Below are positions 1 through 49,194 of a stretch of DNA of 49,194 nt, in pieces (the stretch's first letter is position 1; each line of letters begins with the position of its first letter). Position numbers and translations under genes: made by a program. Source of the stretch: a virus (taxonomy: Duplodnaviria; Caudoviricetes). The DNA is taken from the IMG/VR virus record IMGVR_UViG_3300032318_001844, positions 1 to 49,194 of that record; one strand, 5' to 3'. The notes beneath the pieces are model-generated. The model was not told the origin of the DNA, searched no databases, and saw nothing but the letters and a program-made list of their open reading frames with translations.

Positions 1-38
1 CATTTTGCAAAACCGTGGCGGAAATGGCATGGGGTTTG
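1..38. repeat. Terminal overlap with 49104-49141 (circular or circularly permuted genome)
   Basis: CATTTTGCAAAACCGTGGCGGAAATGGCATGGGGTTTG at 1-38 aligns with 49104-49141 with 4 mismatches. Confidence 0.9.
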
Positions 39-64
39 CCCCCCCCCCCCCCCCACCCTAGATT
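36..64 (+). promoter_or_regulatory. Sigma70-like promoter with poly-C spacer
   Basis: TTGCCC (36-41), 17 nt spacer, TAGATT (59-64); C16 tract at 39-54. Confidence 0.6.
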
Positions 65-69
65 CCCAG

Positions 70-213
70 CCCTACAGGAGCGATGGACGCAAGGCCAGTA
101 CACGGAGACGGGGTGGAACCCCGGACGCATGGAGGCAGATCGCCGCTGACGCAGGACGGGGACGCGGCGGGTTTTGACTGAGGATCGACAACGCAAGAAA
201 GCGAGGAAACGGA
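70..213 (+). ncRNA. Candidate CsrA/RsmA-binding multi-GGA RNA or 5' leader
   Basis: 11 GGA motifs between 77 and 213, several in short hairpin loops; stem 141-146/164-169 followed by TTTT. Confidence 0.5.
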
Positions 214-1101
214 ATGGTTCAGATTCGGAAGGCTCGCCGCAGCGCCACGAAGCTGCGGCTCCTGCTCACGGGACCGAGCGGCAGCGGCAAGACCTACGGG
301 GCACTGCTCGTCGCGAAGGGGCTGGGCTCTCAGAGAACGATCGTCATCGACACCGAGCAGGGTTCGAGCGATCTCTATGACAGGCTGCACGACTTCGATG
401 TGATCGACCTCGTGCCGCCCTTCACGCCCGAGGCGTACATCGAGGCGATCGACGCCGCCGAGGCGGCCGGTGCCGACTGCATCGTGATTGACTCGATCAG
501 CCACGAGTGGAACGGCAAGGGCGGATGCCTGGAGCTCGTGGACGAGATCGCACGGGCGAAGTTCAAGGGCAACACGTGGTCGGCGTGGAGCGAACTCACG
601 CCGCGTCACCGGGCGTTTATCGACCGGATGCTGCGGTCGTCGGCCCACGTGATCGCCACGGGCCGGTCGAAGACCGAGACGGCCCAGGTGGATGACCACG
701 GGCGTAAGAAGGTGGTGAAGCTCGGGATGCGTGTCGAGTCGAGGGACGGCGTCGAATACGAATTCACGACGTGCATCGACCTCGTCCACGACGGTCACTT
801 CGCGGTGGCGTCGAAGGACAGGACGGGCATCTTCGGCGGCGATCCGAAGCCGATCAGCGTGGACACGGGCAAGGCGTTCGCCGAGTGGCTCGCTGGCGGC
901 ACGCCTGCACCGAATCCGCTCGTCGCACAGATCCGCGAGTTCGTGGCGACGGCCGAGCCAGAGCGACTGAAGGCGACGACGAAGCGGATCGATGCCCTTC
1001 TCGCCGAGGGCAAGTTGACGAGTGCCGAGTGGGAGTCGCTGACCGATGCGATCACCGCTCGCGTGGACGGACAAGCGGCAGTCGTTGCTGCCGCTGAGTG
1101 A
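214..1101 (+). CDS. AAA_24/Sak4-like ATPase (single-strand annealing recombinase)
   Basis: Walker A GPSGSGKT, IDTE, Walker B VIDSISHEW, KDRT motif; followed by an SSB-like gene. Confidence 0.85.
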   Translation: MVQIRKARRSATKLRLLLTGPSGSGKTYGALLVAKGLGSQRTIVIDTEQGSSDLYDRLHDFDVIDLVPPFTPEAYIEAIDAAEAAGADCIVIDSISHEWNGKGGCLELVDEIARAKFKGNTWSAWSELTPRHRAFIDRMLRSSAHVIATGRSKTETAQVDDHGRKKVVKLGMRVESRDGVEYEFTTCIDLVHDGHFAVASKDRTGIFGGDPKPISVDTGKAFAEWLAGGTPAPNPLVAQIREFVATAEPERLKATTKRIDALLAEGKLTSAEWESLTDAITARVDGQAAVVAAAE

Positions 1102-4988: not shown

Positions 4989-5245
4989 CCGAGCTCGCCC
5001 TTATCGCAATCGGGATCGTGATGCAGTCGGCGACGTTCGCCTTCGGCATCCTGGTAGGAGCGTCACTCAGGAGGAGAGGACATGACGGCAACAGCTACGA
5101 AGAGGCGAAGGAGTACTGGCATCACGCTACCGGCCGCCACGCTCAAGACAGCGCTCGCGGACGTGTCCGCAGCGGTGCCGACGCGACCGGCGAAGCCGGT
5201 GCTCGCGTGCATCCGAATTGGCGATGGCACGCTGACGGCGACTAA
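4985..5245 (+). CDS. Small putative membrane protein
   Basis: GTGA-coupled start, hydrophobic N-terminus; 3' part overlaps dnaN. Confidence 0.4.
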   Translation: MTELALIAIGIVMQSATFAFGILVGASLRRRGHDGNSYEEAKEYWHHATGRHAQDSARGRVRSGADATGEAGARVHPNWRWHADGD

Positions 5246-21479: not shown

Positions 21480-21498
21480 TTGACACGCCTTGCACCAT
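21480..21498 (+). promoter_or_regulatory. Class B motif
   Basis: TTGACA cgccttg CACCAT; ATG 6 nt downstream. Confidence 0.65.
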
Positions 21499-21504
21499 GC
21501 GGGC

Positions 21505-22431
21505 ATGGAACTCTCAGCCAAGCGAATCCTCGTCACGGGCGGTGCCGGGTTTCTCGGCAAGGCAGTCTGTCGCGTGTTGCACGGTCGCGGATGCCGCCAC
21601 GTGATCGTGCCTCGTCGGGTCGCGTGGGACTTGACCACCGAAGATGACGCCGTCGAACTCTTCGACGACGTGCGGCCCGAGGTCGTGCTTCACCTCGCGG
21701 CCGAGGTCGGCGGCATCGGCGCGAACATGGCGACGCCTGGTCGGTTCACGTTCGCGAACCTCGCGATGGGACTGCATGTGATCGAGCAGTGCCGACGGTT
21801 TGAGGTCGAGAAGGTCGTCGTCGTCGGGACCGTGTGCAGTTATCCGCTCAACCCGCCCGTGCCGTTCGTCGAGTCGGATCTCTGGAACGGCTACCCGGAG
21901 GCAACGAACGCGGGATACGGCGTGGCGAAGCGAGCGGTGTACGAACTGCTGCGGCAGTACCACAAGCAGTACGGCCTCCCAGGCGCGGTCGTGATCCCGA
22001 CGAACCTGTACGGGCCACACGATAACTTCGACCCGGTGTCTTCGCATGTGATCCCGGCGATGATCCGGCGATTCTGCCGCACCGATCCGGTCACGCTCTG
22101 GGGGACGGGCTGTGCGTCGCGTGAGTTCCTCCACGTGGACGACGCTGCCGAGGGCATCGTGCGAGCAGCGGAGACGGTGACGACGCCCGATCCGATCAAC
22201 CTGGGCGGCGGCGGCGAAGTGCAGATGCGGAAGTTGGCCGAGATGATCGCGGGCGAGTGCGGCTACATGGGCGTGATTCGCTGGGACTCATCGAAGCCAG
22301 ACGGTCAGCCGAGGCGTGCGGTCGATGCCACGCGAGCCCGCGAGATTCTCGGGTGGACGCCGAAGGTCAGCCTGGAGAACGGCATCGCCGAGACGGTCTC
22401 GTGGTGGAGGGATCAATGCGCGTCGCTCTGA
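21505..22431 (+). CDS. fcl: GDP-L-fucose synthase
   Basis: [56 protein letters not shown]. Confidence 0.93.
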
Positions 22432-23384
22432 TCACCGGCATCACCGGGCAGGACGGCTCCTATCTCGCTGAGCTCCTGCTCGCGAAGGGCTATATCGTCC
22501 ACGGCATCGTGCGACGGTCCAGCACGTTCGGCACGCAGCGGATCGAGCACATCTTCAATCGGCTGAACCTGCACTACGGCGACGTGACCGACGGCGGCGC
22601 GATGGCACGGCTCGTCGCCGAGATCGAGCCCGACGAGCTCTACAACCTCGCGGCACAGTCGCACGTGCGGGTGTCGTTCGACCAGCCCGCGTACACGGCG
22701 GAAGCGGTCGGCATCGGAGCGCTCAACGTCCTCGAAGCAGCCCGCGTCGTGCCTGGGTGCCGTGTCTATCAAGCGTCCTCCTCCGAGATGTACGGGCAGG
22801 TCGCCGAGACGCCCCAGCGGGAGACGACGCCGTTTCGCCCACGGTCGCCGTACGGCGTGGCGAAGGTCTACGCTCACTGGATCACGGTGAACTACCGCGA
22901 GAGCTACGGGATGCACGCATCGTGCGGCATCCTGTTCAATCACGAGAGCCCGAGGCGGGGCGAGACGTTCGTGACCCGCAAGATCACGCGGGCAGCGGCA
23001 CGCATCGCCAGCGGCATCCCCGAGACGCTGTACCTGGGCAACCTCGACGCCCGGCGTGATTGGGGCCACGCAGCGGACTACGTCGAGGCCATGTGGCTGA
23101 TGCTCCAAGAGGACGACCCTGACGACTACGTCATCGCGACCGGCGAGACGCACAGCGTGCGGGAGTTCTGCGAGCGGGCGTTCGCCCACGTGGGGCTGGA
23201 CTACCGCGACCACGTGGAGATCGACCCGCGCTACTACCGACCGGCCGAGGTGGATCTGCTCCAGGGCGACGCGAGCAAGGCACGCAGGCAGTTGGGCTGG
23301 GTGCCGAGGGTGACGTTCGACGGGCTGGTGGCGGGCATGATGGACGCGGAACTGCAAGAGATGCGGGGGCGCGTGGTAGCGTGA
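22416..23384 (+). CDS. gmd: GDP-mannose 4,6-dehydratase
   Basis: [55 protein letters not shown]. Confidence 0.96.
23350..23382 (+). promoter_or_regulatory. Class A promoter motif
   Basis: AACTGCAAG-N18-TAGCGT; ATG 6 nt downstream. Confidence 0.65.
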
Positions 23385-46193: not shown

Positions 46194-47342
46194 TCAGGCC
46201 GCGTCGCCCTGACCGGCGATCCACCCGTCGAGCAGACCCCGGCTGAACGCCGCCACGTCTTCCGGCTCGATACCCGCAGCCGCCGCCAGGGCGTCGTGCT
46301 GAGCCCGTGGTGGGCAGGCGAGCCCTCGGGCAGCCATCGATCGCCCGACCGACGCACCGGCTTCTACGGGGCCGCTGGACGCCCGTGCAGCCGTGGGCGG
46401 CTCCGGGGCCGGTGGCGGGGCTGGGCGGGCCGTGCGTCGCTCGCTAGGGAGCTTGGGCAGGAGGTCGAGCGGGTCCGCTCCACCGACGATCTCGGCCACA
46501 AGGTAGTGCTGGCGCGTCGTGGACGGGTCGCTGTGCGAGAGGTACTCCGTGGCGTCGCCGCCAGCCGCCGCGACGTAGGAGCCTGCCGCCTTGCGGATCG
46601 GATGGAAGCCGTGGACGGCGACGCCCGCCGTATCCCCGAGCAGCTTCAGCGAGATCCAAAGCGATGCCGGTAGGCGGTGCTCAAGCCACGGCCAGACGAG
46701 CTCGTCGTCGCCCCTCCGGTGCTTTCCGAGCAGTCGGGCGAGCTCGGGCGTGATGGACCGCACGATTGTCTTCGTGCCCCCCTTCCTGCCGCTGCCGTCA
46801 TACGTGATGCGACGGGCGTCGAGATCAACGTCTCGCCAGCGGAGGGCGAGGAGCCCGCCGATCCGCTCGGCGGTCTGCCACGCGGCTTGCAGGATGGTCA
46901 CCCAGAACCACCACGCAGGGACCGGGCCGACATCGCCGCGTCTGCGTCTGGCCGCTTTGACGAGCGCGTCGATCTCCTCCAGGCGGTAGCCTTTCGGTGG
47001 GCGCAGCGACACCTTGACGAGACCTCGCGGGAGGTCAGGGTGCTCGATCAGCACGCCGTCGGATCGCGTGAGCCGCTTCTTCGCCGCGTGCGTCCAGAGC
47101 GCCGACAGGTGGGAGATGTCCTTCTTGACGGTCGCCGGTCGCGGCAACTTGCCTCGCCAGTGACGATCCTCGGCTCGCCACTTCGCGAACCGCGCGAGCG
47201 TCATGTCGTCGAGGTCATCGAGCGTCGCCGGTCGCCCGAGGAACGCATCGAACCGGTCGAGCGTAGAGGACAGAAGGGCCGTCGTGCGGTCCTTGAGTCC
47301 ATGCCGAGTTGAGTACACCGAGAGAAGATCACGCAGAGTCAT
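46194..47342 (-). CDS. int: Tyrosine recombinase/integrase
   Basis: Catalytic R (AERIG), K (RKGG), HxxR (HPIR), H (LSHSD), Y (HYL); GGAGG RBS. Confidence 0.88.
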   Translation of the reverse strand: MTLRDLLSVYSTRHGLKDRTTALLSSTLDRFDAFLGRPATLDDLDDMTLARFAKWRAEDRHWRGKLPRPATVKKDISHLSALWTHAAKKRLTRSDGVLIEHPDLPRGLVKVSLRPPKGYRLEEIDALVKAARRRRGDVGPVPAWWFWVTILQAAWQTAERIGGLLALRWRDVDLDARRITYDGSGRKGGTKTIVRSITPELARLLGKHRRGDDELVWPWLEHRLPASLWISLKLLGDTAGVAVHGFHPIRKAAGSYVAAAGGDATEYLSHSDPSTTRQHYLVAEIVGGADPLDLLPKLPSERRTARPAPPPAPEPPTAARASSGPVEAGASVGRSMAARGLACPPRAQHDALAAAAGIEPEDVAAFSRGLLDGWIAGQGDAA

Positions 47343-47488
47343 CGCCACGCCTCCGTATCTAGATGGGACTAGTATACGGGCGACCACTGGAACCTCTGTC
47401 TACCATGCCCTCCGCTCAAAAGATCGCCCGTAGGACTTAAAACTCTAGGAGAGTCCGAGTCCTACGGGCAAGGCGACGAAGCGGCGAT

Positions 47489-48761: not shown

Positions 48762-48789
48762 TTGACACTAGTGAACATCTGTATACCAT
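48762..48789 (+). promoter_or_regulatory. Sigma70-like promoter
   Basis: TTGACA-N16-TACCAT downstream of two operator-like repeats. Confidence 0.6.
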
Positions 48790-48817
48790 CGCCCCACCAC
48801 GAAAAGGAGCATCCCCC

Positions 48818-49111
48818 ATGTCGCTGATTTCGTCAACCCGCCACCCCGGTGACGCCGAGGCCCACGCCGCAGGCGAGTACCTCGCCGAGCTCTACGGCTC
48901 GCCCGCGCAGGGCGAGGGCCGCTGGGTCAACGGTCGCCTCGTCTCAACCTACGCGGTCGGCGACTCGGTGAACGTCGCCTTCAAGGACGGCCGTCGCCGC
49001 TGCGTGGTCATCGAGGCGCTCGACGACAACCGCTACCACGTCGTCGAGCACCTGCCCGGCGGAGGTCGCAGGCACCACGAGATCGACGGCGACGCGATCG
49101 CGACTTTTTGA
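48818..49111 (+). CDS. Hypothetical protein (SH3-like C-terminal part); 3' end uncertain
   Basis: AAGGAG RBS; the stop lies in the terminal overlap, where the copy at 1-38 reads TGC instead of TGA. Confidence 0.6.
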   Translation: MSLISSTRHPGDAEAHAAGEYLAELYGSPAQGEGRWVNGRLVSTYAVGDSVNVAFKDGRRRCVVIEALDDNRYHVVEHLPGGGRRHHEIDGDAIATF

Positions 49112-49138
49112 AAAACCGTGGCGGAAATGGCCTGGGGG

Positions 49139-49194
<56 letters not shown>

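Follow-up and report, generated by a model that had tools for sequence, protein, structure and literature searches.

A region near the start of a phage genome encodes what comparative sequence evidence indicates is a real, selected and structured multi-GGA element and not a reading frame. The element appears to represent an undescribed family of phage RNA motifs, which resembles a multi-site CsrA target and falls, by the features tested, outside both the CsrB/RsmZ and the TwoAYGGAY groups. We judge CsrA likely to be its ligand, and we assign a probability of roughly 0.55 to the reading that the element acts in cis as a CsrA-responsive leader, or as a leaky attenuator, before a recombinase gene. 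The features discussed are collected in Table 1, where positions refer to the window, meaning the whole stretch of DNA that was analysed; its 49,194 bases make up a complete virus record.

Table 1. Features of the GGA element and of its genomic surroundings in the window
Feature	Position	Strand	Remarks
Predicted sigma70-type promoter with poly-C spacer	36-64	+	TTGCCC 36-41, 17 nt, TAGATT 59-64
5' add-on with two extra GGA sites	70-99	+	ACAGGAG 74-80; GCG-AUGGA-CGC 80-90; insert, varies in L001 and L003
Single-stranded 5' site ACACGGAGA	100-108	+	GGA at 104, present in 20/23 rows of A3
Hairpin H1	109-123	+	6-bp stem, GGA triloop; closing pair U-A, C-G or A-U
Hairpin H2	127-136	+	2-bp stem, ANGGAN hexaloop (GC-AUGGAG-GC)
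Hairpin H3	142-168	+	5-bp stem, 3x3 internal loop, 3-bp stem, AGGAC pentaloop
Short U-run after H3	172-175	+	Candidate leaky terminator or pause
A-rich spacer and ribosome-binding region	176-213	+	GGA at 182, 205 (Shine-Dalgarno) and 211 (abuts ATG 214)
Sak4-like single-strand annealing protein (AAA_24)	214-1101	+	Directly under the element; Pfam and PHROG matches
SSB-like gene	1129-1623 (1095-1623 with ribosome-binding region)	+	Weak PHROG 378 match, E 7e-4
Integrase	46197-47387	-	
Promoter-like site before the small gene	near 48763-48791	+	
Small gene, N-terminal helix and Tudor/SH3-like barrel	48818-49111	+	Across the circular junction from the element

GGA content and coding potential

A preliminary description of the region at 70-213 had listed 11 GGA triplets, all of which are present where it placed them, and had proposed a scan of GGA density across the genome against a shuffled background. 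This segment proves to be the 144-nt segment with the most GGAs on either strand, the plus-strand mean being 2.4 per segment. Taken alone, the count is marginally significant, with p = 0.049 against dinucleotide shuffles of the region, p = 0.008 against mononucleotide shuffles, and 3 of 30 whole-genome shuffles reaching at least 11 GGAs somewhere. The folding energy of the region is ordinary (z of +0.42, +0.82 and -0.36 for three choices of boundary). There is no Rfam gathering match in the window, and a scan of positions 1-2400 returned three chance matches (E 5-8), none of them to a Csr or Rsm family.

Such marginal numbers would be compatible with a chance cluster of GGAs, and an ATG that follows GGAG at position 83 might be read as the start of a short translated ORF. 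The region had been described as having no convincing ORF; a 32-codon ORF does exist at 83-181, yet relatives preserve neither its start nor its frame nor its stop, and for this lack of conservation it was rejected. The strong covariation and the fixed loops found across more than 130 distinct sequences, detailed below, largely refute both forms of this explanation, and we regard it as highly improbable.

Architecture and covariation

The hairpins named at the outset are present in the predicted fold, at 80-90, 109-123 and 141-169, the last followed by UUUU at 172-175. The second of these had been drawn with a 4-bp stem and a UGGAA loop (GGGG-UGGAA-CCCC), and it takes the form of a 6-bp stem with a GGA triloop. 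The proposed extent of 70-175 did not hold, given that the conserved unit spans 100-213 and that approximately 90 nt upstream, to which the promoter belongs together with the GGAs at positions 77 and 85, constitute an optional insert. An 11-nt repeat, CCCTACAGGAG, does occur exactly twice, at 70 and 1109, but we do not take it to be functional because the pair is not conserved in relatives (the 5' copy differs in L001 and L003).

Within the conserved unit, the core at 100-175 is a three-hairpin motif whose stems covary and whose loop GGAs are fixed. Among sets of loci picked by protein homology, the loop GGAs of H1, H2 and H3 are kept in 22, 23 and 21 of the 23 rows of alignment A3 and in 26, 25 and 25 of the 26 rows of alignment A4. 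The H1 stem varies freely in sequence yet is 99-100% paired, with covariation at 5 of 6 pairs in alignment A2 and at all 6 in A4, and a G-C pair of H2 is changed to C-G in 13 of 36 rows. The internal loop of H3 conserves GA and A, and the adjoining 3-bp stem has one G.G mismatch in the window. Downstream of the core, a GAAAG in the spacer is conserved, and the spacer GGA occurs in about 15 of 23 rows of A3 and in few rows of A4.

Counted over whole alignments, 96% of cells are paired in A2, with 69 double-change cells against 21 in shuffled alignments, and 95% in A4, with 84 against 25, although A2 fixes parts of H3 through its search pattern and A4 was fitted to the model, such that both lean towards structure. 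This level of covariation was matched by none of 500 shuffles, and slid controls reached at most 19 (A2) and 14 (A4). The covariation across related phages that had been proposed as a check is therefore evident, with near-invariant loop GGAs. Invariant loops on variable stems suggest a protein-binding RNA.

The sequence context of the GGAs is in part that expected of CsrA sites. The element typically holds 7-11 GGAs, at a density of 5.9 per 100 nt compared with 1.6 in downstream coding DNA. An A at position -1 or -2 (AGGA or ANGGA) precedes 787 of 1236 family GGAs, against 315 of 725 in downstream coding DNA, which leaves 449 of 1236 that are non-canonical. In the window, 8 of the 11 GGAs fit the CsrA consensus in this respect and 3 do not, including that of the H1 triloop.

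GGA and AGGA are also the core of the Shine-Dalgarno sequence of this phage, and the element sits between a stop codon and a start region. The triplets could be Shine-Dalgarno-like standby sites through which the recombinase is translated more efficiently, or could protect the transcript from nucleases, without any regulatory protein. Three-base loops closed by covarying pairs are ill-suited to pairing with 16S rRNA, however, and no other gene of the genome has a comparable GGA array. This explanation would also leave unaccounted for the link to csrA in three lineages described below, and we consider it improbable.

Distribution of the motif

Relatives were first chosen by their AAA protein regardless of the element, which yielded 50 loci. 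A model, R1, built from alignment A2 matched 25 of the 26 close AAA loci that have upstream DNA, many of which lie within or near its training set, and gave no match in the 15 distant loci searched of 20. The one close locus without a match, L017, keeps only the 3' end. A pattern for H3 alone found 73 viral loci, of which 59 showed H1 and H2, neither being demanded by the pattern. The other 14 were dropped by eye before counting (13 without H1 or H2 and 1 truncated), as were the L017 remnant and, from the type II set, L668, L733 and L786.

A RecT-like protein query returned 80 loci, with R1 matches in 27 of the closest 36 and in 1 of the other 44, and revealed a type II form with an extra 5' hairpin. 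A pattern for this form found approximately 130 viral stretches, and the GGA-triloop hairpin, which was not asked for, is present in 84 of 88 distinct sequences. The two viral pattern scans together gave 135 distinct versions. A metagenome scan added 1 true match among the 80 loci searched of 119.

In cellular sequences, the full-length element was not found by R1 in 151 Pirellulales genomes, a weak negative with only 23 candidates scored per genome, and a combined H2 and H3 pattern matched in 30 of 301 Pirellulales genomes without any match scoring as the element. The H3 pattern in genome contigs gave mostly chance matches and one full element (L131). The latter, whose 1.3-kb contig was assigned to an alphaproteobacterial MAG lacking csrA, is probably a mis-binned piece of phage.

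Genomic context in the phage

The phage is temperate and tailed, and its record encodes, in addition to the integrase, a terminase, portal, capsid, LexA-like regulator and beta clamp. No tRNA was found in the phage. The contig end at 49108-49140 overlaps window positions 5-37 and then runs into poly-G. Since the end overlaps the start, the GGA element sits within an early rightward region, whose order is a promoter-like site, a 97-codon gene, approximately 90 nt with the poly-C promoter, the GGA element, the AAA_24 gene and the SSB-like gene. The poly-G run that closes the record (49141-49194), after a copy of its first 37 bases, probably arose as a sequencing artefact, the circle having been opened at the poly-C tract; this is a familiar pattern at such tracts.

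The Sak4-like gene is recognized by Pfam AAA_24 (E 1.4e-26) and by PHROG 124, Sak4-like (E 6e-12). The ribosome-binding region of the SSB-like gene, a gene kept in close relatives, is GGA-rich as well (1101, 1105 and 1115). With 4 GGAs each in the 60 nt before their starts, the SSB-like (1069-1128) and beta-clamp (5022-5081) genes carry, after the Sak4 gene, among the highest loads in the genome, by a crude count in which some starts are longest-ORF starts only. These two genes are possible further CsrA targets.

Two other observations were made along the genome. Adjoining genes for a GDP-mannose dehydratase and a GDP-L-fucose synthase lie at 21490-23384. Another intergenic element at 1916-2062, a few genes 3' of the recombinase, is conserved too; it seems to form several hairpins and has few GGAs. 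A rough pattern placed this second element at 11 distinct loci, and it is seen in the window and in L002, L003, L006, L026, L050, L052, L059, L095, L105 and L370; nothing in the Rfam scan of positions 1-2400 matches it.

Position of the element, promoter and U-run

Among the loci examined, the element is single-copy in each genome, is always on the coding strand and was never seen free-standing or in a second copy. By motif-based classes checked on representatives, the gene that follows 78 distinct elements is of the AAA_24 type in 32, RecT-like in 31, Bet-like in 3, of another kind in 10 and unread in 2, and the other kinds, in the cases inspected, are mostly a gene of approximately 150 codons inserted before the recombinase. 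The distance from the end of H3 to the start codon is 26-58 nt in the 76 of 78 elements with a readable gene. On the 5' side, the stop codon of the small gene lies no more than a few bases from the start of most elements. A run of 3-7 U (median 4) within 8 nt follows H3 in every one of the 78 elements, and H3 itself is weak (-7.7 to -16.5 kcal/mol).

The element had been proposed to be under the control of the poly-C promoter and to be transcribed as an RNA of approximately 105 nt. Such a promoter does lie upstream in 10 of 78 versions, from several lineages, but 68 of 78 lack it by a poly-C test, and in the present phage it belongs to the optional insert of about 90 nt that is absent in L002, L025 and L026. 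A consensus scanner called no promoters and no terminators, the poly-C promoter and the H3 stem with its four U residues both falling below its thresholds. The ~105-nt promoter-driven RNA is thus possible in this phage but does not describe the family as a whole, where only 10 of the 78 versions carry the promoter.

Poly-C tracts in promoter-like positions, mostly right after TTG, were seen in several lineages (L001, L003, L011, L040, L056, L058/L076/L095, L067, L086 and L386). Three phages that are nearly identical have tracts of 11, 12 and 9 C. Promoters can undergo phase variation by tract length, and these differences could reflect either that process or assembly error.

The same features bear on whether the RNA acts in trans. 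A short RNA ending at the U-run might titrate host CsrA in the manner of RsmY or RsmZ and thereby free mRNAs of the phage or host, with the recombinase made by read-through. Such an RNA would be a ~105-nt primary transcript where the poly-C promoter is present and, where it is absent, the 3' end of the mRNA from the small gene. The number of GGAs and the way in which loop types replace one another in the additional 5' hairpin of type II are consistent with a sponge, as are the U-run in 78 of 78 elements, the internal promoter in several lineages and the 3'-UTR-like beginning of the element at an upstream stop codon. H3, moreover, is the same as an arm of the TwoAYGGAY-like repeat of the hosts, and RNAs of this class have been proposed as Csr sponges. 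The shortness of the U-run, the weakness of H3 and the absence of room for a promoter belonging to the downstream gene argue against a free RNA, as do the lack of any free-standing or second copy and the leader position of sister arrays before csrA. We therefore treat the sponge as a tentative alternative, noting that a cis-acting leader and a trans-acting sponge can coexist.

The small upstream gene

A homologue of the small gene lies just upstream in most element loci and is the element's most constant neighbour. Its product has no significant Pfam or PDB sequence match. An AF2 model (pLDDT 76) gave Tudor domains as best Foldseek matches (E 0.012), with an OapB-OLE complex at rank 47 (E 0.17). 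The protein is very variable (mean column identity 29%), and only E14 and A18, both in the N-terminal helix, are invariant. The family combines this conserved helix with a mosaic barrel and corresponds to an ESM Atlas cluster of 235 viral members.

Antitermination sites such as lambda nut and HK022 put occur in phages, and the ligand of the element could be the small Tudor/SH3-like protein or RNA polymerase, with the element as an antitermination or translational-control site of the early operon. The constancy of the small gene as a neighbour and the ability of small beta-barrels to bind RNA are compatible with this proposal, as are the H1 triloop, which is non-canonical for CsrA, and a location in an early operon before recombination genes. 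The barrel varies too much, however, for the small protein to be a likely reader of invariant loops. The H3 module is also found in host chromosomes, and sister arrays accompany csrA without the small gene (L399, L792). We consider a ligand of this kind unlikely.

Probable hosts and their CsrA proteins

The hosts are probably Planctomycetes of the order Pirellulales, judging from gene similarities. For the GDP-fucose synthase, all 4 named cellular matches are from Planctomycetia/Planctomycetota, and the best 27 of 301 Pirellulales genomes, mostly small, match it at 58-63% identity. The best genome match of the integrase is a Pirellulaceae MAG, although this integrase is present in just 1 of 401 Planctomycetota genomes. 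The names in the integrase cluster include Caulobacteraceae and Proteobacteria MAG labels on short contigs; these disagree with the Planctomycete call, and we read them as putative mis-binning. Homologues of the terminase and AAA proteins gave no host assignment.

It had been advised to check that the host encodes csrA, and in the inferred host group all 27 of the best-matching Pirellulales genomes do so, with 3-14 csrA genes each; fliW was found in 5 of 5 candidate host genomes. The host CsrA proteins keep L2, L4, R6 and R44, which we take to be the RNA-binding residues of CsrA. A multi-GGA leader also precedes one of the host csrA paralogs. In several genomes, the csrA paralog that adjoins fliW follows a conserved leader that holds 3-4 GGAs and ends in CAGGAAGGA; leaders of this type (L498, L502-L504 and L506-L511) are likely autoregulatory sites. 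According to PMC13443453, CsrA is widespread in Planctomycetota.

Phage csrA genes and sister arrays

No csrA is present in the window, and among element-bearing phage records the gene was found in 1 of 29 and 0 of 44 (1 of 73 in total), the single case being L023, where csrA lies two genes before the element. Other phages carry related arrangements. In L399/L789, a three-hairpin array with a GGA triloop and a last hairpin of CCCGC/GCGGG stands directly before csrA, which is followed by RecT. In L792/L793/L797, recovered by a search that selected for CAGGAYG near csrA, an array of 10-13 GGAs with the type II linker GGAAGGA and a C-GGA-G hairpin stands directly before csrA, which is followed by AAA_24. 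These arrays give only partial matches to R1 (at most 11.9 bits), so we call them sister arrays and propose homology to the motif by architecture only. Of 76 distinct regions that precede canonical phage csrA genes, the majority do not form GGA arrays, and R1 gave no match below E 0.5 at any of 80 phage csrA loci.

Phage csrA genes were repeatedly observed at the entry of a recombination module, before exonuclease, AAA_24 or RecT genes. This arrangement occurs in L796/L799, L803, L792/L793/L797, L399/L789 and L023, and L803 has two csrA-like genes.

Proposed function

Of the two options raised in the preliminary description, a leader that couples recombination or replication to CsrA status fits the evidence better, and a free sponge of the CsrB/RsmZ type fits less well. 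We favour the cis-acting leader because the element is single-copy, because its spacing to the start codon survives replacement of the downstream gene and because GGAs lie over the ribosome-binding site. The GGA-rich starts of the SSB-like and beta-clamp genes and the autoregulatory position of sister arrays before csrA favour it as well. Two caveats apply, in that the start-proximal GGAs are partly just Shine-Dalgarno sequences, with the spacer site poorly kept in RecT-type elements, and in that 7-11 sites and a variable number of hairpins exceed the need of a simple leader.

By this cis-acting mechanism, host CsrA would land on the GGA-loop hairpins of the early transcript, and the recombination and replication genes would be held down when free CsrA is high. 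CsrA dimers loaded on the loops could bridge to the GGAs at 205 and 211 and block ribosome loading on the Sak4 gene, and CsrA on the loop of H3 might stabilize that hairpin before the U-run and increase premature termination. The short GGA-rich RNA released by termination would, incidentally, titrate CsrA. Once free CsrA drops, or once strong early transcription saturates it, the recombinase and SSB would be made. Where a sister array precedes a phage-borne csrA, the phage would regulate its CsrA in a closed loop, and the present phage, having no csrA, would rely on that of its host.

A broader scheme, which we put forward as doubtful, is that temperate Planctomycete phages use the element as an RNA switch that is both sensor and decoy, in which CsrA stops transcription and the released RNA titrates the CsrA paralogs. 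The resulting threshold might time recombination-dependent replication and the choice between lysis and lysogeny, and might be tuned by a phage csrA or by poly-C length; this further step is equally speculative. If the sensor-decoy reading is true, the element would be the first phage-encoded Csr RNA as far as our literature search shows. A motif family with more than 130 natural variants before three types of recombinase offers a handle on how phage replication might be coupled post-transcriptionally to the host. The element, including its unusual GGA triloop, is also a candidate natural ligand for the 3-14 CsrA paralogs of Planctomycetes.

Comparison with known systems

Like the leaders of Escherichia coli pgaA and Bacillus subtilis hag, the element has several GGA sites, placed in loops and over the Shine-Dalgarno sequence and start codon. 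It shares with CsrA leaders generally the presence, on the same strand, of GGA sites upstream of and overlapping the ribosome-binding region. In PMC7652899, CsrA binding to pgaA is tied to both translation and termination, and PMC13443453 presents hag as a multi-site leader repressed by CsrA. Unlike these two, the element is phage-encoded, precedes interchangeable recombinase genes in a polycistronic early operon, and consists of serial short stable hairpins that include a GGA triloop; in place of Rho sites it has a U-run of the intrinsic type. Its most conserved loop, the NGGAN of H1, is without an A at -1 or -2, unlike the CsrA SELEX consensus RUACARGGAUGU given in PMC7652899.

CsrB/CsrC and RsmX/Y/Z resemble the element in having repeated loop GGAs, a variable number of sites and a final hairpin with a U-run. 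The loops of RsmZ include ANGGAN hexaloops and AGGAN pentaloops. As in sponge sRNAs, loop and linker GGAs are conserved while stems vary; a promoter of its own combined with a strong terminator was not found for the element at the level of sequence. Unlike these sRNAs, it has no Rfam match, has a weak U-run, is always directly before a gene and is borne by a phage.

The third comparison is with TwoAYGGAY RNAs, whose loops are proposed, rather than demonstrated, to be Csr/Rsm sites in PMC4333381 and bioRxiv 10.64898/2026.09.22.753630. The H3 core is multicopy in candidate hosts: a search of 27 genomes gave 72 matches, spread over 20 of them, where a reversed control gave 16, and its inner stems covary there. 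The corresponding host repeat of ~140 nt (loci L513-L541 on Pirellulales chromosomes of G048, G073, G745, G755 and others) has a long covarying basal stem, two arms with GA loops, AGGAU loops and z scores of -7 to -8. Its loci have no Rfam match and score below threshold against RF01731 TwoAYGGAY (best 30 of 43 bits). RF01731 gave no match in G000 or G010 at E<=5 and none in the window, and this TwoAYGGAY-like repeat is apparently undescribed. H3 resembles one of its arms, with a short stem, a GA-containing internal loop, a 3-bp stem and a GGA loop, and the host arm GCGGAGCCAGGAUGGCGAAGC recurs without any change in several of the phage versions. Unlike TwoAYGGAY, the element has a single arm-like hairpin (AGGAC), no basal stem and a single copy. 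The shared H3 module would tie the host repeat to the Csr system.

Phage motifs in similar positions have been catalogued by Fremin et al. 2023 (PMC10690425), the consulted portion of which places DNAVirus_1662 and DNAVirus_8244 before AAA_24 genes and DNAVirus_1649 before csrA. These motifs are from freshwater Caudovirales, lie at most 25 nt from AAA_24 or csrA and are unannotated in that portion. Compared by description, the AAA_24 motifs have 6-8 sequences of 64-72 nt, versus more than 130 of ~120 nt for the element, and one of the catalogued motifs may be a piece of the element or of the sister arrays. In the searchable full-text literature, outside which most subscription papers lie, we found neither a Csr leader or sponge encoded by a phage nor a CsrA-binding RNA or CsrA target from Planctomycetes.

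Mobile elements reach the Csr system by another route as well, and RsmQ is reportedly a CsrA-type protein found on them. PMC7366521 covers csrA genes on phages and plasmids and the control of prophage activation by CsrA in Serratia. Like these mobile csrA genes, the element would tap the Csr system, but they do so as proteins, whereas the element is an RNA in a phage that has no csrA.
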